Assembly (NCBI GenBank): GCA_934091015.1
Contig: CAKOKM010000001.1
Coordinates: forward strand, 1 to 59,587
DNA: 59,587 bases
Direction: 5' to 3'
Source: an uncultured Bacilli bacterium
Lineage (GTDB): Bacteria; Bacillota_I; Bacilli_A; RF39; UBA660
The notes below the pieces were generated by a model, which was not told where the DNA came from, searched no databases, and was given only the letters and a program-made list of their open reading frames with translations. Of this stretch, positions 16,810 through 44,365 are shown piece by piece. The translations under genes were made by a program, and so were the position numbers. How positions within the stretch are numbered: position 1 is the first letter of the stretch; the number at the start of each line of letters is the position of its first letter.

Positions 16810-16821
16810 GAAGTGTATCTT

Positions 16822-19660: not shown

Positions 19661-19755
19661 CAAATTTAAAATATTGTATAACTAATTATATGAAACAAGA
19701 AATTAGTGATATAATATAAATTGTTTGAAATATTACTTTGGAAAGGAATAAAAAA

Positions 19756-20424
19756 ATGGAAGAAAAAGATAAAGAATTTGAAATTTCAATAGATACTGAA
19801 GTTGGAACCGGTTCATTGAAGCTTAAAAATTTTAAAAATAGGGTTGTTGCCTCTATCGGTGATATTATAGTTGATCAATTATCTTATTTTAGATGGAGCA
19901 ATACTTTAAAGTTTCTAGATAAATATAATAGAAAAAGAGCAAGAAGAAAATTAGAAGGAAAAGATACGCCATTACCTCCTAAATTTATTTTAGAAGTATT
20001 AGAAAATGCTATACAAGAAGACAATGAACAAATTCAAGAACAATGGTGTAATATGCTAATTAATTGGCAAGACATTGAAAAAAATTGTGATCCTAAATAT
20101 ATGTATATTGATATTTTAAAAAATTTAAATATTAATGAAATTAGATTATTGAAAAAAATAAGTGTTGATCCTAATTTAGAAGAAACACGTACAAATAAAA
20201 ATATGTATTATGACAGAAATATTATTCAAAACGCATTACACATTAATGATGAAGAATATGAACTTATGGTTTTAAATCTGTTTAGATTAAAAGTTTGTGA
20301 TAGCTTAAAGTCTTCGGGTAATGCAATATCAGTTGGGGATCTTCCTGTTTTAGCTGATGCTGGAATAGATAAAATTATAATTACGTCTATTGGATATAAT
20401 TTGATAAAATTAATAGATGAGTAA
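19756..20424 (+). CDS. Abi-alpha (DUF4393)-like protein
   Basis: PLPPKFILEVLENAIQEDNEQIQEQWCNMLINWQD matches the hallmark P..l...il..a..e.de.l.e.Wa.LL block of Abi-alpha proteins. ATG 19756 follows GAAAGGA; the ORF-track TTG 19738 is unlikely. Confidence 0.5.
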   Translation: MEEKDKEFEISIDTEVGTGSLKLKNFKNRVVASIGDIIVDQLSYFRWSNTLKFLDKYNRKRARRKLEGKDTPLPPKFILEVLENAIQEDNEQIQEQWCNMLINWQDIEKNCDPKYMYIDILKNLNINEIRLLKKISVDPNLEETRTNKNMYYDRNIIQNALHINDEEYELMVLNLFRLKVCDSLKSSGNAISVGDLPVLADAGIDKIIITSIGYNLIKLIDE

Positions 20425-21780: not shown

Positions 21781-21978
21781 AGTGCTGACTTTGTTTTCAA
21801 AACAGGATATAATATATTAGTGCTGACTTTTATAAAAGAATAGTATATAATATATTTTATAGTTAATTACAATTCAGGATAAACTAATGTATAATTTTAA
21901 CAAAAGTGCTGACTTTGATCTTAAAACACGGTATAATATTATTGTAGTGCTGATTTTTATTCGTAAAAATGATAAACT
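21781..21978 (+). promoter_or_regulatory. Four tandem promoter-like units AGTGCTGA(C/T)TTT-N14-TATAAT
   Basis: Units start at 21781, 21819, 21905 and 21946. Each has CTGACT/CTGATT, an exact 17-nt spacer, then TATAAT (21808, 21846, 21932) or TAAACT (21973). Lies upstream of the methyltransferase genes. Confidence 0.55.
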
Positions 21979-21995
21979 ATAAAGGGAGGTTAATT

Positions 21996-23057
21996 ATGAC
22001 AAAATATAAAGTTCTAGATTTATTTTGTGGGGCGGGAGGACTTAGCTTAGGATTTAAATTAGCAGGTTTTCAAATTGTAGGTGGAATTGACTTCCAACGA
22101 GATGCAATTTATACACATGAAAAAAATTTTAAAAATAGTATTTCCATATGTGGAGATATTAAAGAAATATCAGATGATAAGGTTAAAGAGTTGTATGAAA
22201 ATAAGGTTGATATAATTATAGGTGGACCACCATGTCAAGGTTTCTCGGCAGGAAACAGACAACAAATTGAAAATGACCCAAGAAATAAATTGTTTTTCGA
22301 ATTCATTAGATTTGTTAGAATTTTACAACCAAAGGCAGTTGTGATAGAAAATGTAAGACAAATATTAACGAAAGATAAAGGATTTGCTAAAACTAAAATA
22401 TTTGAAATTTTAGAAGAACTTGGATATAACGTTGATGTTAGAGTTTTAAAAGCGAATGATTATGGGGTTCCTCAAAACAGGAATAGAGCAATTTTTATTG
22501 GCTTAAAAAAAGAATATGGTAAAATTGATTATGATAAGATTAAAAAAATATCAATTCCAGTAACAGTAAAAGAAGCAATCGGAGAATTATATGAATTGGA
22601 AAATAAAAATACAAATATTATAACAATCAAACCACTAACAAAATTTCAAAAATATGTTAGATCAAAAGATAATATGATATTTAACCACGATATAAAATAT
22701 CCTAATCAAGAAGTACAAGATAGAATGAATTTTGTTCCACAAGGTGGAAATTGGCAAAATGTACCAGAAAATATGTGGAAAACAAAAAGAAACAATAGAC
22801 ATTCTTCTGCATATAGAAGATTGGATGAAAATAAGCCATCAATAACAATAGATACTGGCCATATGAATTATTTTCATCCATTATATAATAGAGTTCCTAC
22901 GGTTAGGGAGTCAGCAAGATTACAATCTTTTCCAGATGATTTTATTTTCGTCGGTACACCTACAAGTCAATTAAGGCAAGTAGGAAATGCAGTGCCACCA
23001 TTGATGGCAAAAGCAGTTGCAGAATTAATTAAGGAGACTTTAGCAAATGAAAAATAG
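21996..23057 (+). CDS. dcm: DNA (cytosine-5)-methyltransferase 1
   Basis: Motif I DLFCGAGG, motif IV GGPPCQGFS, ENV, QNRNR, TVRESARLQSFPDDF and GNAVPP. AGGGAGG RBS before ATG 21996. Confidence 0.92.
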   Translation: MTKYKVLDLFCGAGGLSLGFKLAGFQIVGGIDFQRDAIYTHEKNFKNSISICGDIKEISDDKVKELYENKVDIIIGGPPCQGFSAGNRQQIENDPRNKLFFEFIRFVRILQPKAVVIENVRQILTKDKGFAKTKIFEILEELGYNVDVRVLKANDYGVPQNRNRAIFIGLKKEYGKIDYDKIKKISIPVTVKEAIGELYELENKNTNIITIKPLTKFQKYVRSKDNMIFNHDIKYPNQEVQDRMNFVPQGGNWQNVPENMWKTKRNNRHSSAYRRLDENKPSITIDTGHMNYFHPLYNRVPTVRESARLQSFPDDFIFVGTPTSQLRQVGNAVPPLMAKAVAELIKETLANEK

Positions 23058-24117
23058 AAAAAATGTGATAGATTTGTTCTGTGGGTGTGGCGGATTTTCT
23101 AAAGGGTTTGAAGACGCCGGTTTTGAAGTTAAATTAGCTATAGATATGTGGAATGATGCTATTGAAACATTTAATGTAAATCATCATGTTCCAGTTGGGA
23201 TAACAAAAAACATTTATGATTATACTAATGAAGAAATAAAGGAATTTGCAAAGAAAAATCGCATTACAGGAATTATAGGTGGACCACCATGTCAAGGATT
23301 TAGTATGGTTGGTAAAAGAGAGGCTAGCGATAAAAGGAATACGTTATATTTACAATATGTAAGATTTGTAGAACAAATAAGGCCAGAATTTTTTATTCTT
23401 GAAAATGTTAAGGGGTTATTGACTTTACAAAAAGGATATTTTAAGAAAGAGATAATAGAAAGATTTTCTGAACTTGGATATAATGTCACATATAAAGTGT
23501 TACGTGCATGTGATTATGGTGTTCCCCAAAAAAGAGAAAGAGTATTTTTTGTAGGGCTTAGGAAAGATAAATTTGGAGATAAATTTTTTGAATATCCTCA
23601 ACCAGTTAATCATATAGTTGGAACTGAAGAAGCGTTAAGTGATTTACCTTCTCTTGATAATGGTGAATTAGAAACTGAATATAAGACTAAACCACAGAAT
23701 GAATTCCAAAAATTAATGAGAAAAAATTCAAAATATATAAACAATAACGAAATAACAGTACATTCGAAACAAACAAAGAAAATTATTTCAATGATTCCAG
23801 ATGGTGGTAATATTAAATCATTACCATCAGAATATTTTAAAATTAGAAACTATAGCTCTGCTTTTAAAAGAATGAATAGTAAAGAACCATCAACAACAAT
23901 AGATTGTGGCCACAGAAATTATTTTCATTATAAAGAAAATAGAATCCCTACCGTTAGAGAATCTGCAAGAATTCAATCTTTTTCAGATAATTTTATATTC
24001 CTTGGATCTAAAACTAGTCAATATACTCAGGTTGGTAATGCAGTGCCACCACTTTTAGCAGAAGCAGTGGCTAATGCTTTAAAAAAAATGTATAAAGAAA
24101 TTGATAAAAACGACTAA
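23047..24117 (+). CDS. dcm: DNA (cytosine-5)-methyltransferase 2
   Basis: DLFCGCGG, GGPPCQGFS, ENV, QKRER, TVRESARIQSFSDNF and GNAVPP. Overlaps the first methyltransferase gene by 11 nt. Confidence 0.92.
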   Translation: MKNRKNVIDLFCGCGGFSKGFEDAGFEVKLAIDMWNDAIETFNVNHHVPVGITKNIYDYTNEEIKEFAKKNRITGIIGGPPCQGFSMVGKREASDKRNTLYLQYVRFVEQIRPEFFILENVKGLLTLQKGYFKKEIIERFSELGYNVTYKVLRACDYGVPQKRERVFFVGLRKDKFGDKFFEYPQPVNHIVGTEEALSDLPSLDNGELETEYKTKPQNEFQKLMRKNSKYINNNEITVHSKQTKKIISMIPDGGNIKSLPSEYFKIRNYSSAFKRMNSKEPSTTIDCGHRNYFHYKENRIPTVRESARIQSFSDNFIFLGSKTSQYTQVGNAVPPLLAEAVANALKKMYKEIDKND

Positions 24118-24189
24118 AAATGGTTGTTTTTTTAATATATTAATAAATCTTATTAAAAATATGTTACAATGTAATTGGTGGTTGTAGTT

Positions 24190-25251
24190 ATGTTTAGTTA
24201 TGAGAATTTGTATAATAAAGTGTTTGATACAACAATAGATTCGGATAAACTTGTTATTATAAGTGGTTATGTTGGACCTGCAGTTGTTCAAGACTTAAAA
24301 AAATTACCATATGATGTAGAGTTATATGTTGGAATGTATGGTAATGTAATTAGTGGAATATTACATAAGAGTTTATTAAAATCAGATAAAATGGAAAATG
24401 TTTCTATATTTTATACTAATATATTGGTTCATGCAAAATGCTACATTTGGTTTAAAAATAATAAAATAGTTAAGGCTTTGATTGGATCGGCAAACTTTTC
24501 AACAAGTGGTTTAATGACTCCTAAAAAGGAAGTATTAGGATATATTCCTGAAGAATCATATGATGAAATGTTAGTATATATTAATCTAATTAAACAGGTT
24601 TCATATTCAGTAAAAGAATATAATTATGAAGAAAAAAATATCATCGGTTTTACTGATGATATGACTCAAACTATAAGTGATAAAGAGGTTGAAATTTCTT
24701 TATTAGCGGCTAGAGGTAGTGGAAATCAAAACAATATTATAGGTATTGCTACCAATCCGGGTGATGTACATGCAGGAGCTGGTTTAAACTGGGGATTTTC
24801 TAATGGTATGCCAAAACCAAATGATGCATATATTAAAATTCCAAAAGAACAAATTATTAATAATCCTTTAATGTTTCCGCCTAAAAGTAATGATATAAAT
24901 GATCCCATTGATGTAATTTGGGATGACGGCACAGAAATGCAAATGCTTTTGGAAGGTAATCAAACTGTAGAGGGTATTGATTACCCTAAACAAATTAGTA
25001 CATATAAGAGTAAAAAAGAATTAGGATTATATTTAAGAAAACGAATAGGAGATGCGATAGGAAAAAACTTAATCATTCCAGAAGAATTGTCAAAAGATGA
25101 GTTCGTCGCTAAAGCACATTATTATAAAGATAAATTTATAACAAAAGAAATGTTAGACTTATATGGCAGAACATCAATTAATATCAAGTTAATTGGCGAT
25201 CGAACTTATTATTTTGATTTTTCAAGAAATAATTCAGAAAAAGAACAATAA
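24190..25251 (+). CDS. PLD-family (HKD) restriction endonuclease, NgoFVII/BfiI-like
   Basis: Single HKD motif VHAKCYIWFKNNKIVKALIGSANFS (H-x-K...GSxN) in the N-terminal half, and a distinct C-terminal half. Immediately downstream of the two methyltransferase genes. Confidence 0.7.
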   Translation: MFSYENLYNKVFDTTIDSDKLVIISGYVGPAVVQDLKKLPYDVELYVGMYGNVISGILHKSLLKSDKMENVSIFYTNILVHAKCYIWFKNNKIVKALIGSANFSTSGLMTPKKEVLGYIPEESYDEMLVYINLIKQVSYSVKEYNYEEKNIIGFTDDMTQTISDKEVEISLLAARGSGNQNNIIGIATNPGDVHAGAGLNWGFSNGMPKPNDAYIKIPKEQIINNPLMFPPKSNDINDPIDVIWDDGTEMQMLLEGNQTVEGIDYPKQISTYKSKKELGLYLRKRIGDAIGKNLIIPEELSKDEFVAKAHYYKDKFITKEMLDLYGRTSINIKLIGDRTYYFDFSRNNSEKEQ

Positions 25252-25414
25252 ACTTGTTCATTTTAATTTATTAATGTAGTAATAAAGAACATACTTGTGC
25301 CTCTTATTTTACATAATCATATTTTTAATTGTTAAAAATGCTTATAATTAACAAGTTATTAAGCATTTTTTCTTTTTATGTGCTATAATATATCTTACTT
25401 TGAGGGGGAAAACT

Positions 25415-28009
25415 ATGGAAAGCAACATTACTCAAATAGATTTTAAAGATATTAAATCATATAAAACTAAAAAATTGATTAATACTTTGAAAAAATTAAC
25501 AGATGAACAAATAAATATAATAGTAGATTCAAGTGTGATTGATTTTATTTCAAATTTAGATATTAACACCATTAATTCTATTTTTAGAAATTCAAGTTCT
25601 GTTATGCAAAATAAATTGTGGACTAATGATAAAATTCAAAGAATATTAATTTTAGGAACTTTAAATTTAGATAACTTTGTTTGTACTGAACAGACTATAA
25701 GAAATCTTGAAAACTTAAATAAAGTTATAAAATCACAAGCTATAAAAAAACAAATGTATAGTAATAAATATTTTATATCTATTGTTATGAATAGTAATAA
25801 AATTGAAAATAGATTTTTTAATTCATATGATTTAAGAAAAGTTTTTGATGGAATTGTACAAAGTGAAGAATTTAATTCATTACCTACTGATAGACAGTTA
25901 AGAGTAATAGAAAAATTAAATGGTTATACTAGAGAGGCACTTCTTCCTACTGATTTTAGGGAAAGATATAGCAATATAGAAAGAATTCTATTTGGTTCTG
26001 ACAGAGATAGAATTGACAGTAGTATAATGGAACAATTAAATTCAGAAGAATTATTTTTCTTAGATTATATTAATGATACTATGGATAATAATAATGCTAT
26101 AAGAAAATATATGTTAGAAAATGTAGGAAAGAATGGTAAATCGTTTGAAGAGTTCTTTGCTGAAATAAAAACTAGAGATGAATTAATAAGAGAAAAAATA
26201 CGAAATCACTTTAGACATCAACATTTTTATAGACGAGTTAGTTTAGAGGAAAAAATATATCATATTTTATTAAACGAAAATCAGGAAGAACTAATTAAAG
26301 AGAAACTTTTAAAATATTTAATTTGCTATATATTAAAAAATAGTTCTGTTAATCCTGAGATGATGTATAACACATTAAAAAGAAATTTAAATAATGGTTT
26401 AATAAGTTATAGGGATATAAATTGTTTGACTAATAATTATGATGAAGTAACGAAGGATTTAAAATTAATGTTTTATTTGAAGTTCAATATTGCTCTTCTA
26501 AATGCTAGATATCTTCATGGTATAACTTCAGAACAATTATCTAAAGTAAATGTTAAACATATTAATAAATTATCTAAATTTTTAGAAGATAAGACTCAAG
26601 ATGAATTATCTGCAATATATGGATTATGTATTAAAATGTATTTCATATTTGGATATGAGAGAAGTATAGAAATATTAAGTGGTAAATTTGGACAATATAA
26701 CAGAATGTTTTTGGATAATGTTGCTAAAACAGATGTAACAAGAGTTGAAATGAAAGCAGAAGGAAATAAATTTTTACCTGTTATTGATAAAAGATTCATT
26801 AACTTTATGTTTGAAATACCAAAGAACAATCATTTTATAAATATGTTTAATAATAAAGATTCTGAATTATATAAAATGTGGTATTACTTATATAACAACT
26901 ATGATGAAGTATTAGAAAAATGTCATAATGAAATTACATTAAAGAAAGTAAATGCAATATTAGAAACAGAAAAATATGATGTAGATAGAAAAATAATAAC
27001 TCCTGATAACTACTTATTAAATAATAATAGCTTTTTAGAAAATATTATTTTAGGAAATAAAACACACAATAGTAATAACGAAGTATTAAGAAAGATTGTT
27101 GAAATATATTCACAAATGAAAAAAAGAGTTGAATCTAGTATTCCATATGTAAAAGGAGTTTCAACAAGCGGTTATACTTATGAAGTTATGAAATTAGATG
27201 ACCCACAAATATTTGAGTTAGGATATAAAGCTAATTGTTGTATTAGAACATTTGATATAGCACATAAACATTTGCTACACGCAGCACTTTGTAGAAATGG
27301 TAGAATATTAATAATATATGATAAATTAGGTGATATTGCTGCTTTTTGCCCATTGAAAAGAAATGGAAATGTATTAATAGCGAACAGCATTGAGTGTGTA
27401 GATAAAAAGATAGAAGTTAATGGGCATTTAATATCTACTGCATTTAAAGAAGGAATGGAAAAGATAGTAGAAGTTACTAAACAAAGTAACGAACCAATTA
27501 ATTTAGCTTGTATGGGCAGTGCTTCATACTTAAAACCAAATACAACTTCTTTTCCAAAAGATTATCCAACACCAACTATATTTGAAAAAGATGATGAAGT
27601 ATATGGAAATACAGATGTTTATCATAAAACTTTAGATGTTGTATATAAAGATAATAATTTTGATTTTAAAAATATTAAATCGAAAGATCCAGATGTTTCA
27701 TATATGGACCCTAGAGATGAAATAAAATTTGTTGATTTCTTTACAGATAGATATAACAACAATAATGAAAATGTAATTAACATAATAAATTCTATAAATT
27801 ATTCAATTAATCCTACAAACTATATGCCAATAAGCAAATATTCTATAAGAAGTGTTTATTATTCTAAAGATTGGTATATAGTTGAAACATATCAAGGATT
27901 AATTGGTGAATGTTTAGAAAATGATTATAGAGCAAGAGAAGAATTTAATAGTTATATGACAATGTTAAATAAAGAAGAACAACCAAAAGTATTAAAAAGA
28001 GAATTATAG
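25415..28009 (+). CDS. Large hypothetical protein (864 aa) with a PcfJ-like C-terminal motif
   Basis: GAGGGGG RBS before ATG 25415; extended -10 TGCTATAAT at 25381-25389. GYKANCCIRTFDIAHKHLL...NGRILIIYD...IANSIE resembles the NICIRSYNERY...LFFMRS block of ORF 5393. Confidence 0.55.
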   Translation: MESNITQIDFKDIKSYKTKKLINTLKKLTDEQINIIVDSSVIDFISNLDINTINSIFRNSSSVMQNKLWTNDKIQRILILGTLNLDNFVCTEQTIRNLENLNKVIKSQAIKKQMYSNKYFISIVMNSNKIENRFFNSYDLRKVFDGIVQSEEFNSLPTDRQLRVIEKLNGYTREALLPTDFRERYSNIERILFGSDRDRIDSSIMEQLNSEELFFLDYINDTMDNNNAIRKYMLENVGKNGKSFEEFFAEIKTRDELIREKIRNHFRHQHFYRRVSLEEKIYHILLNENQEELIKEKLLKYLICYILKNSSVNPEMMYNTLKRNLNNGLISYRDINCLTNNYDEVTKDLKLMFYLKFNIALLNARYLHGITSEQLSKVNVKHINKLSKFLEDKTQDELSAIYGLCIKMYFIFGYERSIEILSGKFGQYNRMFLDNVAKTDVTRVEMKAEGNKFLPVIDKRFINFMFEIPKNNHFINMFNNKDSELYKMWYYLYNNYDEVLEKCHNEITLKKVNAILETEKYDVDRKIITPDNYLLNNNSFLENIILGNKTHNSNNEVLRKIVEIYSQMKKRVESSIPYVKGVSTSGYTYEVMKLDDPQIFELGYKANCCIRTFDIAHKHLLHAALCRNGRILIIYDKLGDIAAFCPLKRNGNVLIANSIECVDKKIEVNGHLISTAFKEGMEKIVEVTKQSNEPINLACMGSASYLKPNTTSFPKDYPTPTIFEKDDEVYGNTDVYHKTLDVVYKDNNFDFKNIKSKDPDVSYMDPRDEIKFVDFFTDRYNNNNENVINIINSINYSINPTNYMPISKYSIRSVYYSKDWYIVETYQGLIGECLENDYRAREEFNSYMTMLNKEEQPKVLKREL

Positions 28010-28372
28010 AAAAAGACCAGTGCTATAAACTAGTACCGGTCTTATCTTTTTTTCAGCAAGTAAATAATGTTCTCTAATATCTATAACTAGTTGTTGAAGA
28101 TTATTCACAGTCTTTCTTAAAAAATCAACATCTTCAACATAACCCCAATAATGCATTTTAGTAGCCATCTGATTTAAAATATTTCCTGTTCTTCTAACAT
28201 AATTATGCGATTCATAAAACTCAATAGGTGGCTTTTCTTTTGGCTCAAAACCCATTATTAATTCTCTTATTACCACAACATAAGGTAGTCCAACTTTTGA
28301 AGATAATTCTATTAATCTATCTCTTTCTTCGTAACTTAAATATACATTTAATTTCCAATTTCTTTTTCTCAA
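28004..28372 (-). CDS. mobC: MobC-family relaxosome accessory protein
   Basis: 122 aa. N-terminal RHH-like LNVYLSYEERDRLIELS and the hallmark GNILNQMA (GNNLNQIA in MobC). No relaxase gene nearby. Confidence 0.7.
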   Translation of the reverse strand: MRKRNWKLNVYLSYEERDRLIELSSKVGLPYVVVIRELIMGFEPKEKPPIEFYESHNYVRRTGNILNQMATKMHYWGYVEDVDFLRKTVNNLQQLVIDIREHYLLAEKKIRPVLVYSTGLFL

Positions 28373-28523
28373 TAGTTAGCCTTTCATATACGATTGAACT
28401 CTAGAATCTCAATATTTCTCATCACGCTTGTTATATAAGATTAAAAATTAATCCTCACATTCTAAAACTACGATAATAAAAAGAAAAGAGCTAGGCCGTC
28501 ATAGAAATGGATACAAAGACCCT

Positions 28524-28532
28524 TGGTATAAT
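28524..28532 (+). promoter_or_regulatory. Extended -10 promoter element TGGTATAAT (P1)
   Basis: TG-n-TATAAT at 28524-28532. The same 9-mer recurs at 28656-28664. Confidence 0.4.
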
Positions 28533-28552
28533 TTGCCTAAACTCGATCGCAG

Positions 28553-28590
28553 ATATTTATATTCATTTTTATAAAAATGAATATAAATAT
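28553..28590. repeat. 38-bp perfect palindrome
   Basis: ATATTTATATTCATTTTTA|TAAAAATGAATATAAATAT, 19-bp arms with no spacer. Lies between mobC and the MazG-like gene, downstream of P1. Confidence 0.85.
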
Positions 28591-28655
28591 TATAATGTAA
28601 ATATCAAAAGTTTCAACTTATCAAAACTAGTCAATTTACTACTCAGTATTATACG

Positions 28656-28664
28656 TGGTATAAT
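28656..28664 (+). promoter_or_regulatory. Extended -10 promoter element TGGTATAAT (P2)
   Basis: Lies 18 nt before ATG 28682, with an AGGTGA RBS in between. Confidence 0.45.
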
Positions 28665-28681
28665 TGAAATAGGTGATTATA

Positions 28682-28996
28682 ATGCGTGAATTAACAGAAA
28701 AAGTAGTTGAATTTACTCGTGAAAGAGATTGGGATCAGTTTCATTCTCCAGAGAATTTAGCTAAGAGTATTTCTATTGAAGCAGGTGAGTTATTAGAATG
28801 CTTTCAATGGAATAATGAATATGATTTGGACGAAGTTAAAGAAGAATTAGCAGATGTTATTAATTATTGTTTATTAATGGCTGATAAATTAGGAGTAGAT
28901 CCTAAACAAATAGTTTTAGATAAAATGGAAAAAACTGCTAAGAAATATCCAATTGAAAAAGCTAAAGGAAAGAGCACAAAATATAATAAATTATAG
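28682..28996 (+). CDS. MazG-like all-alpha nucleotide pyrophosphohydrolase
   Basis: 104 aa. FTRERDWDQFHSP, EAGELLE and EELADV (paired ExxE/ExxD metal-binding motifs) and KKYP, typical of the small MazG/DCTPP1-like family. Confidence 0.8.
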   Translation: MRELTEKVVEFTRERDWDQFHSPENLAKSISIEAGELLECFQWNNEYDLDEVKEELADVINYCLLMADKLGVDPKQIVLDKMEKTAKKYPIEKAKGKSTKYNKL

Positions 28997-29007
28997 GAAG
29001 TGATAAT

Positions 29008-30720
29008 ATGGCAGAAATTATTACAAAGAAATTTAATGCAGGCACATCAAGCATTTTAAAAAATGAAAAATATGGAAGCAATTGGCCAGTTGTTTATATT
29101 ATTAATAATAAAGAAGAGGCTTATGTTGGTGAAACAACTGATGCTAGTATTAGGTCAAATCAACATTGGGCGAATGAAGTCAGAAGGAATTTAGATAAAA
29201 TAAACATAATAGGTGATGATACTTTTAATAAATCTTCAATATTAGATCTTGAATCCTTTTTAATAAAATATATGTCTGCAGATAATAAATTTAAATTGCA
29301 AAATGGTAACGGTGGCTTACAAAATCATAATTATTATCAAAGAGAAATGTATGAAACTAAATTTAGAGAAATTTGGCTACAATTAAAATCAAAAGGATTA
29401 GTAAAAAATGATTTAAAAATGATTGCTAATTCTGATTTATTTAAATATTCGCCATACAAAGCATTAACGGTTGATCAATATGTGATTGTAAATGATATTT
29501 TAAGTGATTTATCAGATTTGGTTTATAAAAAAGAAAAAGGAACTTTTGTTGTTGAAGGTGGAGCTGGAACAGGAAAAACTATTTTGGGAATATACCTTCT
29601 TAAATTATTAGTTCAAGCAAAAGATTCATCTCAAATTGAAATTGAAGAGGATCAAGTTGAACAAAATCTATCTGAAATATTAAAAATAAATGATGCAGTA
29701 GATGATTTAAAAATAGGCATGGTTATTCCTATGGAAAATTTAAGAAGTACCCTTAAAAAGGTATTTAGAAGTATTAAGGATTTGAATTCTAATATGGTGT
29801 TAAGTCCGCATGACGTTGGGAAAAATGATGAAATATATGATTTGTTAATAGTTGATGAAGCACATAGACTTAGAAGAAGAAAAAATCTTACACAGTATGG
29901 TACATTTGATGAAAATAATAGAAAAATGAATTTAGGTAATTCGGGTACAGAACTTGATTGGATTTTATTAAAAAGCAAGTATCAAATTTTTTTCTATGAT
30001 GAAAATCAATCAATTAAACCAACTGATATAAGAAAAGAAGACTTCGATAAATTAATGCTAAGAAAAAATTATCATGCTTATCAATTAAATACTCAATTGA
30101 GATGCTTATTAGGTGGTAATGAATATATTGATTATATAAAGGCAATATTTAGTAATAATCCTCCTAAAAAGAAAATTGACTTTAAACAATACGATTTAAA
30201 AATATTTGATGATGTTGGCAGTATGGTTGAAGATATCAAAGAAAAAGATTCTGAATATGGACTATGTAGAAATATTGCAGGATATGCTTGGAAGTGGAAT
30301 AGTAAAGGCAAACATTTGCCATTAGACTCAACTATATCTAAAAATAATAATGGTTTATATGATATAGAAATAGATAACAATAAATATATATGGAATTCAC
30401 AAGCTTATGATTGGATTAATTCTAAAAATGCTGTAAATGAAATAGGTAGTATTCATACAACTCAAGGCTTTGACTTAAATTACACTGGATTAATTATTGG
30501 CAATGAATTAAGGTATGATTTAGATAAGAATCAGTTCATTGTAGATAGAAATAATTATTATGATGCTAAAGGAAAAGCGGATACAACTGATGAAGAATTA
30601 TTAAATTATTTATTAAATATCTATAGAACTATGATGACTAGGGGAATGCTTGGAACATATATTTATGTATGTGATCCGAGTTTACGACAATATCTAAAAA
30701 AATATATTTCTACAAAATAA
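29008..30720 (+). CDS. GIY-YIG-like nuclease domain fused to a DUF2075/SF1-helicase-like P-loop ATPase
   Basis: 570 aa. N-terminus VVYIINNKEEAYVGET..R..(E)..N fits a GIY-x8-YVG layout. Walker A GGAGTGKT, Walker B LLIVDEAHRL, and C-terminal SIHTTQGFDLNYTGLII and YRTMMTRGMLGTYIY. Lies 11 nt after the MazG-like gene. Confidence 0.7.
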   Translation: MAEIITKKFNAGTSSILKNEKYGSNWPVVYIINNKEEAYVGETTDASIRSNQHWANEVRRNLDKINIIGDDTFNKSSILDLESFLIKYMSADNKFKLQNGNGGLQNHNYYQREMYETKFREIWLQLKSKGLVKNDLKMIANSDLFKYSPYKALTVDQYVIVNDILSDLSDLVYKKEKGTFVVEGGAGTGKTILGIYLLKLLVQAKDSSQIEIEEDQVEQNLSEILKINDAVDDLKIGMVIPMENLRSTLKKVFRSIKDLNSNMVLSPHDVGKNDEIYDLLIVDEAHRLRRRKNLTQYGTFDENNRKMNLGNSGTELDWILLKSKYQIFFYDENQSIKPTDIRKEDFDKLMLRKNYHAYQLNTQLRCLLGGNEYIDYIKAIFSNNPPKKKIDFKQYDLKIFDDVGSMVEDIKEKDSEYGLCRNIAGYAWKWNSKGKHLPLDSTISKNNNGLYDIEIDNNKYIWNSQAYDWINSKNAVNEIGSIHTTQGFDLNYTGLIIGNELRYDLDKNQFIVDRNNYYDAKGKADTTDEELLNYLLNIYRTMMTRGMLGTYIYVCDPSLRQYLKKYISTK

Positions 30721-30759
30721 AAAAACATATATAGCTATGTGATCTATATATGTTTTTTT
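30721..30759 (+). terminator. Intrinsic terminator
   Basis: AAAAACATATATAG-loop-CTATATATGTTTTT. Closely related in sequence to the terminator at 37392-37427. Confidence 0.75.
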
Positions 30760-30801
30760 ATGCTATAATACATATAATTATTTATTCTTGGAGGGATTTA
30801 T

Positions 30802-33522
30802 ATGGATGAAAGTATTAAATTTATTAATCGGAAAATCAATGATTTGAATATTAAGATAGAAAAAAATATAGATGATTCTATTGATAATAGGGGCTACATG
30901 TCTCAAAATATAATAAAGAGTTTAAGAGATTTGGTAGAATTTATAGCTTTTAAAGTATATGTTGTTGAATACAAGAAGGATTATGTAGAATATAATCATG
31001 TGAATAACGGACTTGCTATTAAGTATATTAAATCTTTATATAAGCATGAAATATTAAAGAACTTTCATGCCTTATTAGAAATTGGACCTTCACATAATAG
31101 TTATAGTGAGGATGGTTCAATTAGATTAATGGTTAAATATCAAGAGTATCTTGTTGATCTAAAAAGATATTATTTTGAGTTGTTTAAAGAAAAAATATTA
31201 ACAAATTTATATAAATTTCCTATGTTTAAAATAGACCCATCTTTATATGATTACTATAAAGAAATATATAATAAGTTAATTCAAATAAAATTTGATAATA
31301 GTGAACGAGTTTTAGGTAATGCATATTATATTAAGAAAACAAAGCCAGTTGCTATAGAAGATAGAGTTTTTTATGAATTAACATTGACGCCAGCTACCGA
31401 CTATGTTAATAAATTTAATAGAATTATTTTTTATTCTCCAGTTAGAATTCCGGATAATTATGCTATTAAAATAAGCTATGTAAGTAAAAATATAAAATCA
31501 TTTAAATCAGAAGTAGAAATCAAGATAATTAATAATTATGAGATATTTATCAAACCGGCTGAAATAAATAGTTTGTACAAAATATTTGGTATTAATAGAA
31601 GAGTATCATATCGTGCAAATGAATATGATTATTTTATGAAATTATTAAAAAATAATCGTTGGACATTAAATCATATTATTAATTTGAATGATGAAGAATT
31701 TGTAATAATTAGACAGGAGTCATCAGTTTATAATACTCATCATTTGTTTGAATTGTTAGAAATGATAAGAAATGTTATTATTAACAATAAACCCGGTCAT
31801 AATGTTTTAAAGTACTTAATACATGTATTGAGAAATTCTGTAGTTATTGATCAAATATGTGATCGGCAATGTAAAATACTATCAGATTTATGTTTAGAGT
31901 ATGGGTGTAATGTTTTTGAAACTATGCCATATGCCTCTTCATTAAATGGTCATAAAATATCTATATCAGATTTATTTGAAATAATTGATCCAGTAAATAG
32001 AGAGCATGAGTTCTTTGGAAGAAAGATAAATGATTTATGCAATTCAACAAATAGAATTTATTTTTCTTTTAAGGAATTAGGTTATGATGAAGAAGATGGA
32101 AAAAAACTTATAAAAGAATTTAATAAGCGCGTTTATTACAAACATACAGATAGATATTTAGAAACAGTTGGAAATAAAGTCTATATAAGAGGATTTGAAG
32201 AAAGTACGATAAAAATCATAGATGTTTTAAAAAGTAAAACTAATGAAAAATATTCTGATTATAAAAATATGTATGATATGTTTGAGGCTTTTAGCGATTA
32301 TGAATTTACTGATAGTATTAAGAAAAATATTTCTGAAAAAATATATATTAATTCAAAAGTTGGATTAATATATGGCTCTGCAGGAACAGGTAAAACTGAA
32401 ATGATTAAAATAATATCTAAAATATTTGATGGTAAAAAAATTGCTTTTTTAGCTAAAACTAATGCTGCTCTAAACAATATTAAAATTCGAGTTGGTAAAG
32501 AGGCAATGGATAACTACAAATTTTATACTGTTGATAAATTTGTTGATAATTCTATAAGAGATAGTTATGATTTAGTTGTTGTAGATGAGTGTAGTATGGT
32601 AGAGAATGATATAATGCTTCAAATGTTAAAGAAAAATAATTATGATTGCTTACTATTAGTTGGTGATATATATCAAATTGAAGCAATTGAGTTTGGTAAC
32701 TGGTTTAGATTTGCAAAGGAATTGATTCCTGAAAATTCATATGAACTAACTGAAAATTTTCGAACTACGAATCATGGATTAAAGAATTTATGGTCTAAAG
32801 TAAGAAATCTAGATGATGGTATTACTGAGAAAACAATTGACGAAGCTTATTCAGAAATATTAAGTGAATCAATATTTGAAAATAGAGAAGATGAAGAAAT
32901 TGTTCTATGTTTGAATTATGATGGCCCATATGGGATTAATAATATAAATAGATATTTGCAGATGACAAATAAAAATAAACCAATAGAATGGGGAATAAAT
33001 ACATATAAGGTTGGAGATCCAATTATATTTAGTGATGTAAGGAGATTTTCTAATGTTTTATATAATAATCTTAAAGGAAAAATTCTAAAAATTGAAAAGA
33101 ATGAAGGTAGCATAACTTTTGAATTATTTGTAGAAAGAAGAATTTCTGATTTTGATGCCTTTGCCAATAACATTAAAGTTATTTCTAGGGGAGATGATGG
33201 ATCGGTTATAGAAATAAAGGTATTACGAAAAGATGATGATGATAAAGATGATGAAGTAGGTTATATTGTTCCTTTCACGGTATCTTATGCTACATCTATA
33301 CATAAATCACAAGGTTTAGAATTTGATTCCGTTAAAATTATTATTTCTGATGAGTCCGAAGAATTAATTACTAAAAATATATTTTACACCGCAATAACTA
33401 GGTCTAAAAATCATCTTAAAATTTACTGGAGTCCAGAATGCCAAAATAAAGTTATTAAGAACATGAAGGATTACAGTTTGAAAGATGATGTAATTATTAT
33501 AAAAAATAAAATGAAAAATTAA
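30802..33522 (+). CDS. 906-aa protein: unknown ~520-aa N-terminal region plus a RecD/Dda-like SF1 helicase
   Basis: GSAGTGKTE (Walker A), LVVVDECSMV (Walker B), and SIHKSQGLEFDSVKIII and FYTAITRSKNHL (motifs V/VI of the RecD-like AAA_30/UvrD_C_2 type). Own extended -10 TGCTATAAT at 30761-30769. Confidence 0.7.
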   Translation: MDESIKFINRKINDLNIKIEKNIDDSIDNRGYMSQNIIKSLRDLVEFIAFKVYVVEYKKDYVEYNHVNNGLAIKYIKSLYKHEILKNFHALLEIGPSHNSYSEDGSIRLMVKYQEYLVDLKRYYFELFKEKILTNLYKFPMFKIDPSLYDYYKEIYNKLIQIKFDNSERVLGNAYYIKKTKPVAIEDRVFYELTLTPATDYVNKFNRIIFYSPVRIPDNYAIKISYVSKNIKSFKSEVEIKIINNYEIFIKPAEINSLYKIFGINRRVSYRANEYDYFMKLLKNNRWTLNHIINLNDEEFVIIRQESSVYNTHHLFELLEMIRNVIINNKPGHNVLKYLIHVLRNSVVIDQICDRQCKILSDLCLEYGCNVFETMPYASSLNGHKISISDLFEIIDPVNREHEFFGRKINDLCNSTNRIYFSFKELGYDEEDGKKLIKEFNKRVYYKHTDRYLETVGNKVYIRGFEESTIKIIDVLKSKTNEKYSDYKNMYDMFEAFSDYEFTDSIKKNISEKIYINSKVGLIYGSAGTGKTEMIKIISKIFDGKKIAFLAKTNAALNNIKIRVGKEAMDNYKFYTVDKFVDNSIRDSYDLVVVDECSMVENDIMLQMLKKNNYDCLLLVGDIYQIEAIEFGNWFRFAKELIPENSYELTENFRTTNHGLKNLWSKVRNLDDGITEKTIDEAYSEILSESIFENREDEEIVLCLNYDGPYGINNINRYLQMTNKNKPIEWGINTYKVGDPIIFSDVRRFSNVLYNNLKGKILKIEKNEGSITFELFVERRISDFDAFANNIKVISRGDDGSVIEIKVLRKDDDDKDDEVGYIVPFTVSYATSIHKSQGLEFDSVKIIISDESEELITKNIFYTAITRSKNHLKIYWSPECQNKVIKNMKDYSLKDDVIIIKNKMKN

Positions 33523-33632: not shown

Positions 33633-33651
33633 GTAATTAGAGGTGAAAATT

Positions 33652-34578
33652 ATGGAATTTATGACTACAAAAGAAACTGTAAAAAAGTGGGGTATTAGTG
33701 AAAGAAGAATAAGACAATTATTACAAGATGGAAGAATTGAAGGTGCTGTAAAAGTAGGTAATAATTGGAATATTCCTATTAATGCTAATAAACCAGCTGA
33801 TAAAAGAAGCATGAAATTAGATAATACTGAATTTATATTTGATTTACCTGATAATTATTTTGATAAAGTTGATGAATTAAATAAAGAATTAAATTCTAAA
33901 AGACCTATATCTAACGAAACATTAAAATCTTTAAAGGAATCTTTCAATTTAGAGTGGACTTATAATAGTAACGGTATAGAAGGAAATACATTAACGTTAA
34001 GAGAAACACAAGTTGTTTTAGAAGGTATTACTGTTGGTGGTAAATCATTAAAGGAACATTTAGAAGTTATTAATCATGAACAAGCAATATTATTCTTAGA
34101 TGATCTTATTAAAGATAAGAAACCAATTACAGAATGGAACATTAAAAATATTCATCAATTAGTTTTAAAAGAAATAGATGATGATAACGCTAGTAGATAT
34201 AGAGATGAGAATGTAAAAATAAAAGGTGCTACACATATTCCACCAGATTATTTAATAGTTCCAGAATTAATGGAAAAATTAATTATTAACTATGAAGATT
34301 GGAAAAAATATCATCCAATTATTAGAGCTGCATTATTACATGGAGAATTAGTTAAAATACATCCATTTGTTGATGGTAATGGCAGAACTTCAAGATTAGT
34401 TATGAACTTATCTTTAATGAATAGCGGATATCTTCCAGTAATTGTAAAAAAAGAAAAAAGATTAGAATATTATAATGCTTTAGATAAAGCATATACTACT
34501 GGAGATTATACTGATTTTATTAAATTAGTTAATGAATTAGAAATTGAAATGTTAAATAAATATTTAGAATTGTTGTAG
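33652..34578 (+). CDS. Fic-family protein with an N-terminal HTH
   Basis: Fic motif HPFVDGNGRTSRL. Upstream SNGIEGN fits the (S/T)xxxE(G/N) auto-inhibitory helix motif. N-terminus TTKETVKKWGISERRIRQLLQDGRI is an excisionase/MerR-type HTH. AGAGGTGA RBS before ATG 33652. Confidence 0.85.
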   Translation: MEFMTTKETVKKWGISERRIRQLLQDGRIEGAVKVGNNWNIPINANKPADKRSMKLDNTEFIFDLPDNYFDKVDELNKELNSKRPISNETLKSLKESFNLEWTYNSNGIEGNTLTLRETQVVLEGITVGGKSLKEHLEVINHEQAILFLDDLIKDKKPITEWNIKNIHQLVLKEIDDDNASRYRDENVKIKGATHIPPDYLIVPELMEKLIINYEDWKKYHPIIRAALLHGELVKIHPFVDGNGRTSRLVMNLSLMNSGYLPVIVKKEKRLEYYNALDKAYTTGDYTDFIKLVNELEIEMLNKYLELL

Positions 34579-34592
34579 TGTAGGTGATTAAA

Positions 34593-37385
34593 ATGAAAAA
34601 TAAGTTTAAAAACTTATATAAAATTAAAATAAGCAATACTATTTATATAATAATTTGTTGTATTACTATGGCTTTACTCTTTGATTTATCAAAATACATT
34701 TTTTCTAATTTATTAAATATTCATTTAGGTTTGAATTTTGAAATTGATTTTATGGCTATTTATGCTGGTTTTTTAACATTAATATTACCTGTTGCAATAC
34801 TAATAATTGAAAGAATTGAAAACTTAGATAATGCAATAATTTCAGAAACGTATTTAAGGGAAACGGCAATTTTCCCAGTTATTGTTTATTTTGTAGTTAA
34901 TTTGCTAATATTTGCATTTAATAATAATCAATATTTCTTTATTGTATCATCGATTATTTCAACTGTTTTAATAGTTTATATGTATTATAAATCATTTAAA
35001 ATGATTTCAAATTTAATTTATGAAAAAGAAAAGATTGGAATTGTTAATGAAGAGGTAATATCAAATGATTTAGTAGATCAAACTACACATTTTAGTGAAG
35101 ATAACAAAATAACTATTTATCAAAAATATGGAGTATATGTTGGAAGATATAATTATATTTCAACTGAAGGATATAAAAAGAAACCATTATATCCAACAAA
35201 TAATTACTTGATAATTAAACAGTATAATTATCGTGTTATAAATAAGTTAATAAAAAAGTTGAAAATATATAATAAGTTATTTATTGATACATATATACCT
35301 AACGAAGAAAATGTTGAATATAGCAATGATAATAAGCCTAACGTTATAGTAGTTCTTTCTGATATTGGATCAACGTTAAATAAAAATAATAGTTGGATAT
35401 CGATATACTATAAAAATGTATCATATAATGATGTAGAAATGATTATAGAAATATTAAAAAATAAAGTTTATATAACTTCAGAGTCAAATAGCCATTTGTA
35501 TATTGAAGTAGCATATAAAGGGATATTGAAAGATTGCATTGAATCTATTAATAGTAATTCTTCTTCGCTTTTATCTGAAAATTTAGAAAGATATCTTGAA
35601 ATATATAAGAATTACATTAATGAGTTTTCATCAAAAATTGGATCATTTACTTATGAAGAATCTTATAGCCACATAAACTCCTTTATTAGATTTAGAGGAA
35701 TGGATTTTCTGACAAATGTTCAAAAGAATATATATGATTATTCTTCAATGATATTGGAAAAAAATAATGTAAGATTAATGAATTCTTTAATAAGTTTTTT
35801 ATATAGTGCTATTCTTTATTCGTATCAAAAAAAAGAATTGCTATCTATTCAACTATTATATGGCACATATGAATATTTATGTGAATGTTCTCTTAAATTG
35901 AATGATAATTCTTCATTTGAAAAAATCAAATTAGAAATATTTGAATTTATGAACATGATAAAATATGATATGCCCAAATCAGAGGATAGATTTGAGAAGG
36001 ATACATTATTAGTGTGCAATAGAGTTATTGGTAATATAATATTTAACTTAAGTCGTAAGGACGAGGAAAAATGTTTGAAATTTTACAAAAAAATATTCAA
36101 TTATATTAATGAAATATCTGAAGAATTGGATTCTGTGGATTGTGATGTTTCTGATAATAATATGATGTATCATAATACTTTGACTGATATATATGATAAT
36201 TTAACTTGTAATATTTTTGCAGTAACAGCTTATGCAATACAAAAAAATAAAAATTTGGATGTCGAAAAACTATTATTGTTTTACGATAAAATTGATGTGA
36301 ATTCTTTGAGCAATATATTAACTAAATCAATATATTTTGACTTCAATAATCGTAATTATTCATGGGATTTAATGGATATGGATAATATTGATGATGATGG
36401 AGTATACAATATAAATACAACTTATTATTTCATACATTTATATTGCTTGTTGATTTCAAGAAAGAATATTAATTCTATAAAAATTAAAAGTAATTTTGAA
36501 TTAAGCAATCAATCTGATAGTATAATAAGTGAATTAAAAAATATGAACAAAGAAGAGTATATTGAGTTATTTGAAAATGTTAAATCAGATGTAGAAAAGG
36601 AAGAAAAAGAGTATATTCGAAAAACACCAATTTCACCAGATAAAATTGAGAATTTCAAAAATAAGTTTTTTGAATATTATGACAAGCATAATAGATTGGT
36701 AAAACTATTTAACATAACAGATAATTTAAAAATAATTAAAAGAAAGAAAAAAGGAAAAAATTATCTAGGAATTAGAAATATAGTTGATAAAACATATTTT
36801 TTAGAAAAAACACCAAATAATAGATGTATCATATGGAGTAATTTTGAAGAAAATTATGCTAATTCCTTTATTAATTCTGAGGAAAATAAATTTGCAATCG
36901 CATTAAATAACAATTCATCATTAAGTGATAAATCAATTATTGATTATTTACAAGATTTAAGCATTATAAAGCTTAAAAAAAGTATATTATTTTCTAATTA
37001 TGAAACAATACATAAAATATTTGGATATAGTAATATATCATATAAGAAAGAAGATAATAAAGAATATGCTAATTTATTTGTTATGATAAAAGGAATTTAC
37101 GTTCCAATCACAGTTATAAATGGTATTGATGAAAATTGCATATATCATGTTTTTGATAATAAAATAGGGAAACTTGAAAAATTAGATAACAGTTTTGAAA
37201 TTGAAATACTTGATTTTTATAACAATGATGAATTATTAAAAAAATGTATGAATGAAAAAATTAATGGTTTAGATTTAACCGGTATAGAAAGAAAGAATCA
37301 CTTATTAGAATCAGTTGACTTATTTATTCAAGAATATATACATATTAATGTTGATAACTTGATATCGTTAAAATTTTATCATTAA
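34593..37385 (+). CDS. 930-aa membrane-anchored hypothetical protein
   Basis: Starts 15 nt after the fic stop with an AGGTGA RBS. About four N-terminal hydrophobic helices (residues ~15-140), then ~790 aa with no recognisable motif. Confidence 0.6.
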   Translation: MKNKFKNLYKIKISNTIYIIICCITMALLFDLSKYIFSNLLNIHLGLNFEIDFMAIYAGFLTLILPVAILIIERIENLDNAIISETYLRETAIFPVIVYFVVNLLIFAFNNNQYFFIVSSIISTVLIVYMYYKSFKMISNLIYEKEKIGIVNEEVISNDLVDQTTHFSEDNKITIYQKYGVYVGRYNYISTEGYKKKPLYPTNNYLIIKQYNYRVINKLIKKLKIYNKLFIDTYIPNEENVEYSNDNKPNVIVVLSDIGSTLNKNNSWISIYYKNVSYNDVEMIIEILKNKVYITSESNSHLYIEVAYKGILKDCIESINSNSSSLLSENLERYLEIYKNYINEFSSKIGSFTYEESYSHINSFIRFRGMDFLTNVQKNIYDYSSMILEKNNVRLMNSLISFLYSAILYSYQKKELLSIQLLYGTYEYLCECSLKLNDNSSFEKIKLEIFEFMNMIKYDMPKSEDRFEKDTLLVCNRVIGNIIFNLSRKDEEKCLKFYKKIFNYINEISEELDSVDCDVSDNNMMYHNTLTDIYDNLTCNIFAVTAYAIQKNKNLDVEKLLLFYDKIDVNSLSNILTKSIYFDFNNRNYSWDLMDMDNIDDDGVYNINTTYYFIHLYCLLISRKNINSIKIKSNFELSNQSDSIISELKNMNKEEYIELFENVKSDVEKEEKEYIRKTPISPDKIENFKNKFFEYYDKHNRLVKLFNITDNLKIIKRKKKGKNYLGIRNIVDKTYFLEKTPNNRCIIWSNFEENYANSFINSEENKFAIALNNNSSLSDKSIIDYLQDLSIIKLKKSILFSNYETIHKIFGYSNISYKKEDNKEYANLFVMIKGIYVPITVINGIDENCIYHVFDNKIGKLEKLDNSFEIEILDFYNNDELLKKCMNEKINGLDLTGIERKNHLLESVDLFIQEYIHINVDNLISLKFYH

Positions 37386-44336: not shown

Positions 44337-44365
44337 AACAAATAACAAATTAATTGGAGGTAAAT

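Follow-up and report, generated by a model that had tools for sequence, protein, structure and literature searches.

Proteins that fuse a nuclease to a DUF2075-type superfamily 1 (SF1) helicase are known as defences against phages. Nhi of S. epidermidis (SERP2475) joins a PD-(D/E)XK nuclease to DUF2075, has been validated as a single-gene defence, and both nicks and unwinds phage DNA, with an activity linked to variants of the phage single-stranded DNA-binding protein (Bari et al. 2022, 10.1101/776245). A second validated system, Nhi-like, has the same domain layout as Nhi but is not related to it by sequence identity (Millman et al. 2022, 10.1101/2022.05.11.491447) and is classed as a PD-(D/E)XK nuclease (10.1101/2025.07.10.664194). 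Phages escape Nhi-like by losing a DNA methylase, and the enzyme class is therefore linked to modified DNA. The AbiO system of Lactococcus has a DUF2075 P-loop/helicase region, and DefenseFinder maps AbiO to PF09848. Fusions of GIY-YIG with DUF2075 have been mentioned in passing (PMC6765204). Here we describe a pair of adjacent genes from an uncultured Bacilli bacterium, found in contig CAKOKM010000001.1 of assembly GCA_934091015.1; the whole stretch of 59,587 nucleotides is referred to below as the window. The first gene (mazG) encodes a small MazG-like pyrophosphohydrolase, the second a 570-residue protein with a predicted GIY-YIG N-terminus and a DUF2075 helicase. The pair is probably a two-part variant of the known single-gene phage defence of the Nhi/AbiO kind.

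With Nhi, the 570-residue protein has in common an N-terminal nuclease fused to a C-terminal DUF2075 helicase of the SF1B type, structural neighbours that include Dda, Upf1, and Dna2, and a patchy occurrence on plasmids and in islands. It differs in its nuclease, predicted to be GIY-YIG rather than the HsdR-like PD-(D/E)XK domain of Nhi, and in having a conserved MazG partner, whereas Nhi is a single-gene system. The PADLOC model for Nhi gave no match to it at E <= 0.01, while among its relatives partial matches of 30-56 bits cover the N-lobe of the helicase only. Nhi-like is defined by its architecture alone, a predicted N-terminal nuclease plus DUF2075, and the 570-residue protein fits in that loose sense. 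The Nhi-like nuclease, however, is classed as PD-(D/E)XK, and Nhi-like was assayed as one gene, with no MazG partner reported. AbiO is the best PADLOC match of the 570-residue protein (1.2e-8). However, that match (32 bits) consists of the Walker A region and a second short stretch, and it falls short of full length, the best stretch aligning query residues 152-206 with positions 178-221 of a 468-position model; the two have no N-terminal domain in common, and AbiO has no MazG partner.

Enzymes of the nucleotide pool also have a place in phage defence. dCTP deaminase and dGTPase have been described as defences that deplete deoxynucleoside triphosphates (dNTPs), and DefensePredictor lists MazG as a predicted, unvalidated defence domain (PMC13092281). 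What they have in common with our pair is a nucleotide-pool enzyme that acts, or is predicted to act, in anti-phage defence. The dNTP-depletion defences rely on other enzyme families with other partners, and in the DefensePredictor MazG/MazG-C/UDG system the partners of MazG are a kinase domain, NMAD, and UDG rather than a DUF2075 helicase (PMC13092281). In the literature searched, no paper was found that connects DUF2075 or Nhi with MazG or describes the pair; there is likewise no PADLOC model for it, in line with the initial annotation, which knew of no characterised system with this exact pairing. The two open reading frames (ORFs), their sizes, and their spacing are as that annotation gave them, and the elements of the locus are as follows.

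28635..28664, plus strand: proximal promoter, with a -35-like TTTACT, an 18-nt spacer, and an extended -10 element, TGGTATAAT, at 28656-28664
28682..28996, plus strand: mazG-like gene, from ATG at 28682 to TAG at 28996, 104 aa
28994..29007, plus strand: gene junction, where the TAG stop of mazG overlaps the AGGAAG ribosome-binding site of the second gene; 11-nt spacer
29008..30720, plus strand: nuclease-helicase gene, predicted GIY-YIG fused to a DUF2075/SLFN-group-3 SF1B helicase, 570 aa
29083..29307, plus strand: predicted GIY-YIG nuclease core, residues ~26-100 (VVY30, Y39-V-G41, R49, H53, E82, N99)
29461..30717, plus strand: helicase module, residues ~152-570, with PF09848 spanning residues 179-556
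30717..30761, plus strand: intrinsic-terminator-like hairpin, with an 18-bp perfect stem and a 9-nt loop, -16.1 kcal/mol, z -4.5

The two genes are conserved neighbours. Among species-representative genomes, mazG lies directly upstream on the same strand in 21 of 23 loci found by way of the helicase, including Clostridia in which the helicase is 42% identical and MazG 68-71%. Both exceptions are Methanomassiliicoccales archaea, one without mazG within 6 kb and the other with it 2 kb off on the opposite strand. Coordinate comparison of plasmids in PLSDB finds a pyrophosphohydrolase gene adjoining a DUF2075 gene in at least 32 of the records common to both listings, with Lactiplantibacillus plantarum, Ligilactobacillus salivarius (in reversed order), Priestia, and Halomonas represented. 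On megaplasmids of the B. cereus group, a DUF2075 homolog of ~32% identity is preceded by an annotated 'nucleotide pyrophosphohydrolase', and one Paenibacillus plasmid carries a GIY-YIG-DUF2075 gene without an adjacent MazG. The third collection holds the top 80 metagenome loci found by way of MazG (56-99% identical), of which 60 have enough flanking sequence to judge. A DUF2075 gene stands beside MazG in 48 of these 60, 41 times downstream and 7 times upstream; since near-duplicate loci are among them, the fraction does not tally independent events. More distant MazG homologs on viral contigs (38-63% identity) are mostly unlinked, with DUF2075 alongside in 4 of 24 cases, and the association is specific to the MazG subfamily to which the window's protein belongs.

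A close relative of the pair, locus L001, has a helicase protein 99% identical to that of the window and DNA ~97% identical, while a search of plasmids for near-identical DNA gave no match. A Rosetta-stone test found no MazG-DUF2075 fusion protein among 150 representatives of the helicase family. In the locus L023 (6001-7733) mazG is intact, but a stop or frameshift interrupts the adjoining GIY-YIG-DUF2075 gene beyond residue ~56; this gene is a pseudogene, unless the assembly is at fault. In L112-L114, L117, and L049, one mazG is flanked by two DUF2075 genes; the upstream one is a non-GIY paralog, and the downstream one is of the GIY-YIG type except in L049. By their arrangement, these loci appear to hold tandem effectors using a single MazG.

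The partner of MazG can change. MazG proteins 87-88% identical to that of the window lie upstream of DUF2075 proteins of 621-627 aa (L027:6001-8192 and L035:498-2707), with the identical 11-nt gap. Across the helicase region these partners have 28-30% identity to the protein of the window, and they begin with a different domain of ~260 aa that bears the PD-(D/E)XK signature E-x10-RID-x17-ELK, which is the architecture of Nhi and Nhi-like; they resemble Nhi-like more than the 570-residue protein does. A MazG of 87-88% identity also lies 11 nt ahead of a DUF2075 helicase in L053, L056, L058, L062, L064, L072, and L075, and across all these loci the helicases measure 621-660 aa. Identities to the window's proteins are discordant even between close relatives, with MazG at 97% and helicase at 80% in L004 against 88% and 98% in L005, and therefore point to recombination within the operon. 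In loci without a DUF2075 neighbour, MazG of this subfamily has the following associations.

L066:5001-8168: fusion of PLD nuclease, ResIII, and Helicase_C (an SF2 helicase), 16 nt downstream
L109:1118-4710: Metallophos-STAND NTPase, ~300 nt downstream
L088: ResIII helicase, directly upstream
L098:4992-6359: MazG fused to an unknown domain of ~350 aa
L074:5001-5988 and its group: unknown protein of 220 aa, adjoining

Because MazG also precedes PD-(D/E)XK-DUF2075 proteins and other nuclease/NTPase fusions, MazG looks like a conserved, portable accessory of variable nuclease/NTPase effectors. The pairing of MazG with a GIY-YIG helicase, as first proposed, is conserved, but it is not specific to the GIY-YIG form.

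The mazG product matches the MazG-like family PF12643 with 79.1 bits (3e-22, against a cut-off of 27) and also scores above the cut-off of PF03819. Its matches in PDB are an archaeal pyrophosphatase (4qgp, 6e-18) and mouse and human DCTPP1/RS21-C6 (2e-17). The motifs EAGELLE (residues 33-39) and EELADV (54-59) are intact, and their metal-binding residues E33, E36, E39, E55, and D58, in the pattern EXXE-(12-28)-EXXD, are invariant across 14 MazG homologs of 38-88% identity. As the initial annotation had it, the product is predicted to be an all-alpha NTP pyrophosphohydrolase of the DCTPP1/RS21-C6 type with an intact site. DCTPP1 prefers dCTP and C5-modified dCTP (PMC7162842) and stops the misincorporation of methylated dCTP (PMC13291643). 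Its cytosine pocket consists of a Trp47/Trp73 sandwich with Phe41, Phe50, Tyr102, and Tyr129, and has His38 and His51 as selectivity residues (PMC13291643). Mapping the pocket as described there through an alignment of the mazG product to DCTPP1 structures, we found seven of nine positions kept (F11, W17, F20, H21, W43, Y62, and Y89), while the equivalents of His38 and Ile101 are V8 and N61. The mazG product belongs with DCTPP1 and the all-alpha MazG house-cleaning enzymes by fold family, metal motif, and most of the pocket. It differs in being a bare core of 104 residues without the eukaryotic tails, in not keeping His38, and in its setting, a mobile operon with a nuclease-helicase, whereas DCTPP1 is a housekeeping gene. 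The sequence suggests an active dNTP pyrophosphatase, the exact substrate of which is not readable from it.

The helicase region of the second protein matches PF09848 (SLFN-g3_helicase/DUF2075) with 214 bits (4e-63) over profile positions 3-354. Columns invariant in the family include Walker A (G184-T191), Walker B (D283-E284-A-H286), Q334, R365, T484-x-Q486-G487, and R545-G546. A direct sequence search of PDB with this protein returned nothing meaningful (ORC4, E 0.09), and structure prediction was therefore used. The AlphaFold2 model (mean confidence, pLDDT, 78.5) finds Upf1, Dda, RecD, nsp13, and Dna2 by Foldseek at 1e-8 to 1e-6, SF1B matches that agree with the P-loop module of DUF2075/SF1-helicase type read earlier from GGAGTGKT (184-191) and LLIVDEAHRL (279-288). 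These two motifs, EAGELLE, EELADV, and VVYI-x8-YVGET are all found in the translations as they had been quoted.

The GIY-YIG identity of the N-terminus, also claimed by the initial annotation, is upheld by motifs and by evidence at the family level, but the protein alone does not reach the Pfam cut-off, as PF01541 scores 18.1 bits on the full length and 21.1 bits on the N-terminal domain against 22.6. VVYI-x8-YVGET occupies residues 28-43, and Y30, Y39, G41, R49, H53, E82, and N99 are invariant across homologs of 34-82% identity. Their order and spacing are canonical by comparison with I-TevI. PF01541 matches the N-terminus of each of 14 diverse homologs at E <= 1 (best 1.8e-7), its cut-off is exceeded in some relatives (P0397, for example, with 36.2 bits), and many database homologs carry a precomputed PF01541 match. 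A profile of the domain ranks UvrC, T4 endonuclease II (EndoII), and I-TevI first in PDB, at weak E-values of ~0.05-0.16. In the AlphaFold2 model of the domain (pLDDT 86), strands at 28-33, 37-43, and 64-69 and helices at 46-54 and 75-92 are predicted to form a beta-beta-alpha-beta-alpha layout, and the best compact Foldseek match is the GIY-YIG domain of UvrC (probability 0.97, TM-score 0.61, root-mean-square deviation 3.7 A), again at a weak E-value (0.09). Searches of NCBIfam found nothing above threshold for the pair, with HisI and RecD alone appearing below it. Among the profiles named in the initial annotation, MazG and DUF2075 are thus recognized above cut-off and GIY-YIG below it, and PADLOC assigned no system to either protein.

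The family of the 570-residue protein comprises 2203 matches at E <= 1e-3, of which 422 reach E <= 1e-30, among 1.84 billion cluster representatives. Our own hidden Markov model finds the GIY-YIG N-terminal domain in 142 of the 150 best family representatives. Six of eight long relatives scanned (>=718 aa) end in a Peptidase_S24 domain (P0290, P0299, P0309, P0318, P0333, and P0433, all ~730-820 aa), while P0325 has an extra N-terminal HSDR_N nuclease in place of Peptidase_S24. Because Peptidase_S24 is an autocleaving domain of the LexA/UmuD type, its presence suggests that these fused relatives may be under RecA*/DNA-damage control.

Since the stop codon of mazG overlaps the ribosome-binding site of the second gene, with an 11-nt gap, translational coupling of the two is likely. 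The proximal promoter-like site scores 10/12 with TG in a scan for sigma-70-like sites. The stretch is AT-rich, and such sites as a class show no enrichment in it (26 against an expected 24.5), so that a promoter claim needs comparative support. DNA homology to other genomes begins at 28655/28656, exactly at the proximal TGGTATAAT, and most related loci, though their flanks are otherwise unrelated, keep a TGnTAnAAT element 25-45 nt ahead of mazG. For these reasons the proximal extended -10 promoter is part of the conserved module. At the other end, the hairpin of the proposed strong terminator is present, and DNA homology with L005 stops at 30794, just past it. The hairpin is AT-rich, which is why a scan for consensus terminators does not list it, and it could be bidirectional, since an A-tract and a U-tract sit within its arms. 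Rfam searches of 28000-31000 found nothing but spurious sub-threshold miRNA matches on this hairpin.

The initial annotation gave the operon two promoters with a palindrome between them. All three elements are where it placed them, but only the proximal promoter lies in the conserved block. The remaining elements, together with the divergent gene they adjoin, are as follows.

28004-28372, minus strand: NikA-like ribbon-helix-helix (RHH) gene, 122 aa, without an adjoining relaxase
28524-28532: distal copy of TGGTATAAT
28553-28590: perfect 38-bp palindrome, RNA fold z -4.9, with no shuffle folding equally well
28616-28589, minus strand: strong promoter-like site (11/12 match), overlapping the palindrome and facing the RHH gene

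We rejected the palindrome as part of the MazG operon, as it lies outside the conserved block and no further copy of its half-site exists anywhere in the window. The palindrome and the distal TGGTATAAT probably belong to the RHH gene. As the palindrome overlaps a minus-strand promoter-like site facing that gene, the more economical reading is that it serves as an operator of the RHH gene, probably, rather than as an origin of transfer.

The pair is accessory. Copies whose helicase proteins are at least 98% identical have unrelated flanks, which argues that the pair is mobile and resides in defence islands rather than in the core genome, and its distribution is patchy, taking in Bacilli, Clostridia, Methanomassiliicoccales, plasmids, and some viral contigs. 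We count about nine independent neighbourhoods with defence genes.

AIPR/AbiU, Dcm, and MutH
HNH and a PDC-S53-like helicase
integrase, HEPN, Dcm, and NOV_C
AbiGi/AbiGii, Fic, and PIN-TPR
AAA_21 and RloB
SMODS, SLATT, ASCH, and EVE
Z1, DUF4420, and AIPR
HNH and zeta toxin, on Bacillus megaplasmids
restriction-modification (R-M), PDC-S53, and Fic, in the window

Among the families listed by PADLOC for 135 non-redundant neighbour proteins, Type II and C5 methyltransferases are commonest, with 4-6 members each, from which no enrichment figure follows. By raw count, roughly a dozen distinct contexts have a C5-cytosine methyltransferase no more than ~6 kb from the pair (in the window at 21969-24117, and in L007, L018, L023, L027, L044, L054, L056, L061, L099, and L143); this proximity is of interest given that MazG is DCTPP1-like, of an enzyme type that hydrolyses 5-methyl-dCTP. 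Just upstream of the MazG-DUF2075 pair at L027:3341-5563, and likewise in L028-L034, stands another MazG (PF03819), unrelated to that of the pair, with UDG, glyoxalase-like, and NUDIX genes behind it; the cluster resembles the MazG/UDG system that DefensePredictor proposes.

In the window, the pair lies inside an island of ~30 kb, bounded to its left by a tyrosine integrase (16813-17943) and to its right by an arginine-deiminase operon that starts at 47681. GC content is 23-26% within the island and 26-31% outside, 2-5 points lower inside, and no tRNA gene was found anywhere in the window. The R-M system, Abi-like gene, and Fic gene that the initial annotation had seen nearby are all there.

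16813-47134: apparent extent of the island, its right boundary marked by an AEP-TOTE primase-helicase (44354-46726) shortly ahead of the housekeeping arginine-deiminase operon
19738-20424: Abi_alpha
21969-25251: two C5-methyltransferases (21969-24117) and an NgoFVII-type restriction endonuclease
25400-28009: 869-aa ORF with no Pfam, NCBIfam, or PADLOC match
30802-33522: PDC-S53 candidate-defence helicase, 906 aa, 9e-293, with its own TGCTATAAT extended -10 at ~30762
33643-34578: Fic protein, SoFic/PDC-S04-like
34584-37385: 933-aa ORF with no Pfam, NCBIfam, or PADLOC match
also in the island: GajB-like UvrD helicase and PDC-S13/Bro-N

The 869-aa and 933-aa ORFs are candidates in their own right. 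We rejected PDC-S53 as an obligate third gene of the system: homologs accompany the pair only in L001 (7796-10513) and L015 (4555-7221), L005 lacks it despite a helicase 98% identical, and in the window the terminator divides it from the pair. The HNH-bearing neighbourhood elsewhere has a 906-aa helicase of PDC-S53-like make-up, in domains only. The nearness of PDC-S53 to the pair looks like co-residence in the island.

We hold with considerable confidence that mazG and the nuclease-helicase gene form a functionally linked candidate defence operon. The account we favour overall, by a modest degree, is that of a self-contained two-gene operon for defence against phages or other mobile DNA, with an Nhi-like effector and a MazG accessory that edits the nucleotide pool. 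In this account the 570-residue protein would be an effector like Nhi, Nhi-like, and AbiO. Its SF1B helicase would load on and translocate along invader DNA or replication intermediates using ATP, and the fused GIY-YIG domain would nick or cleave the DNA so bound; by analogy with Nhi, DNA attack of this kind is likely. The MazG-like enzyme, predicted to be catalytically competent as a dNTP pyrophosphohydrolase, would edit the nucleotide pool. Most plausibly it would hydrolyse non-canonical or C5-modified dCTP-like precursors, which would either deprive phages with modified DNA of their building blocks or compel them to make DNA that is unmodified and can be cut. The choice of modified dCTP-type nucleotides as the substrate is tentative. 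The escape from Nhi-like by methylase loss hints at targeting of modified DNA, which would fit a DCTPP1-like partner.

Several points weigh against this account. The pair itself is known from sequence and models only. PADLOC has no system model for it, and finds in the 570-residue protein a partial, weak AbiO match and no Nhi match. Related loci are phylogenetically non-independent, and the linkage fractions make independent events look more numerous than they are. Some GIY-YIG-DUF2075 genes have no MazG neighbour (archaeal L011 and the Paenibacillus plasmid); as Nhi, too, works alone, MazG is not obligatory. One of the two cytosine-selectivity histidines of DCTPP1, His38, is Val or Ile in the MazG family, and the substrate may therefore not be a cytosine nucleotide. 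The Peptidase_S24 domain of some relatives fits a role in the SOS response or DNA damage equally well as one in defence.

The main rival explanation retains the defence function and makes MazG a safety device, which keeps host DNA free of the feature under attack or acts as an antitoxin. In one version MazG would destroy salvaged 5-methyl-dCTP in cells with C5-methyltransferases; in the other it would be an enzymatic antitoxin restraining an otherwise toxic nuclease-helicase. The small gene of the pair comes first, its translation is probably coupled to that of its partner, and it is the more conserved of the two; antitoxin and immunity genes are usually laid out in this way. One Nhi homolog is toxic if expressed alone. 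The prevention of methylated dCTP misincorporation by DCTPP1 (PMC13291643) and the C5-methyltransferases near the pair, in the window among other contexts, would suit the first version. However, Dcm-type methylases are common in any defence island, and many pair loci show no methylase within the flanks fetched. Nhi and some GIY-YIG-DUF2075 genes, moreover, exist without MazG. We regard the safety device as unlikely, though the strongest competitor.

A mobile module for DNA repair or genome maintenance is more improbable still. Here a UvrC-like nuclease-helicase would act on damaged or aberrant DNA while MazG sanitises the dNTP pool, with SOS control in some relatives. The UvrC N-terminal domain does supply the best GIY-YIG matches, DCTPP1 is a house-cleaning enzyme, and Peptidase_S24 is found in most of the long relatives scanned. 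Against these stand the patchy, horizontally transferred distribution, with near-identical copies in unrelated flanks, the consistent company of R-M, Abi, Fic, HEPN, and SMODS genes, and the closest characterised relatives, which are anti-phage proteins. Least probable of all is that MazG (as stand-alone nucleotide depletion) and the helicase (as stand-alone Nhi-like defence) are independent island residents that happen to lie side by side. In its favour, a DUF2075 neighbour is missing at 12 of the 60 informative MazG loci, 20 of 24 distant MazG homologs on viral contigs stand unlinked, and Nhi suffices alone. Against it count the short spacers of 11-28 nt between genes that share a strand, a gene order common to 41 of 48 linked loci, the overlap of a ribosome-binding site with the stop codon, the persistence of linkage as partner identity falls from 99% to ~32% and as the nuclease domain is swapped, and the tendency of 'unlinked' MazG genes to abut other nuclease/NTPase fusions (L066, L109).

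Returning to the favoured account of a two-gene defence operon, its interest lies in the conserved and exchangeable MazG partner. The exchange of effectors raises a broader proposal, more doubtful than the operon itself, that DCTPP1-like MazG is a widely shared module coupling dNTP-pool editing, namely the destruction of phage-made modified pyrimidine triphosphates, to DNA attack by unrelated nuclease-NTPase effectors (GIY-YIG-DUF2075, PD-(D/E)XK-DUF2075, PLD-SF2 helicase, and Metallophos-STAND). If true, phages with hypermodified DNA would face a counter-measure dedicated to them, and the DCTPP1 and Schlafen-helicase lineages would be functionally linked in prokaryotes. The operon measures ~2.1 kb with its own promoter and terminator, and so is directly clonable.

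Nuclease-DUF2075 helicases such as Nhi, Nhi-like, and AbiO have been treated as single-gene systems. A conserved dNTP pyrophosphatase partner, common to the GIY-YIG and PD-(D/E)XK forms, suggests that part of the DUF2075 family works with a nucleotide-pool component. If modified dNTPs are removed by MazG, or kept by it out of host DNA, nucleotide-based immunity would gain a third enzyme class, after dCTP deaminase and dGTPase, and there would be a concrete and testable handle on how these enzymes discriminate their targets, self from non-self.

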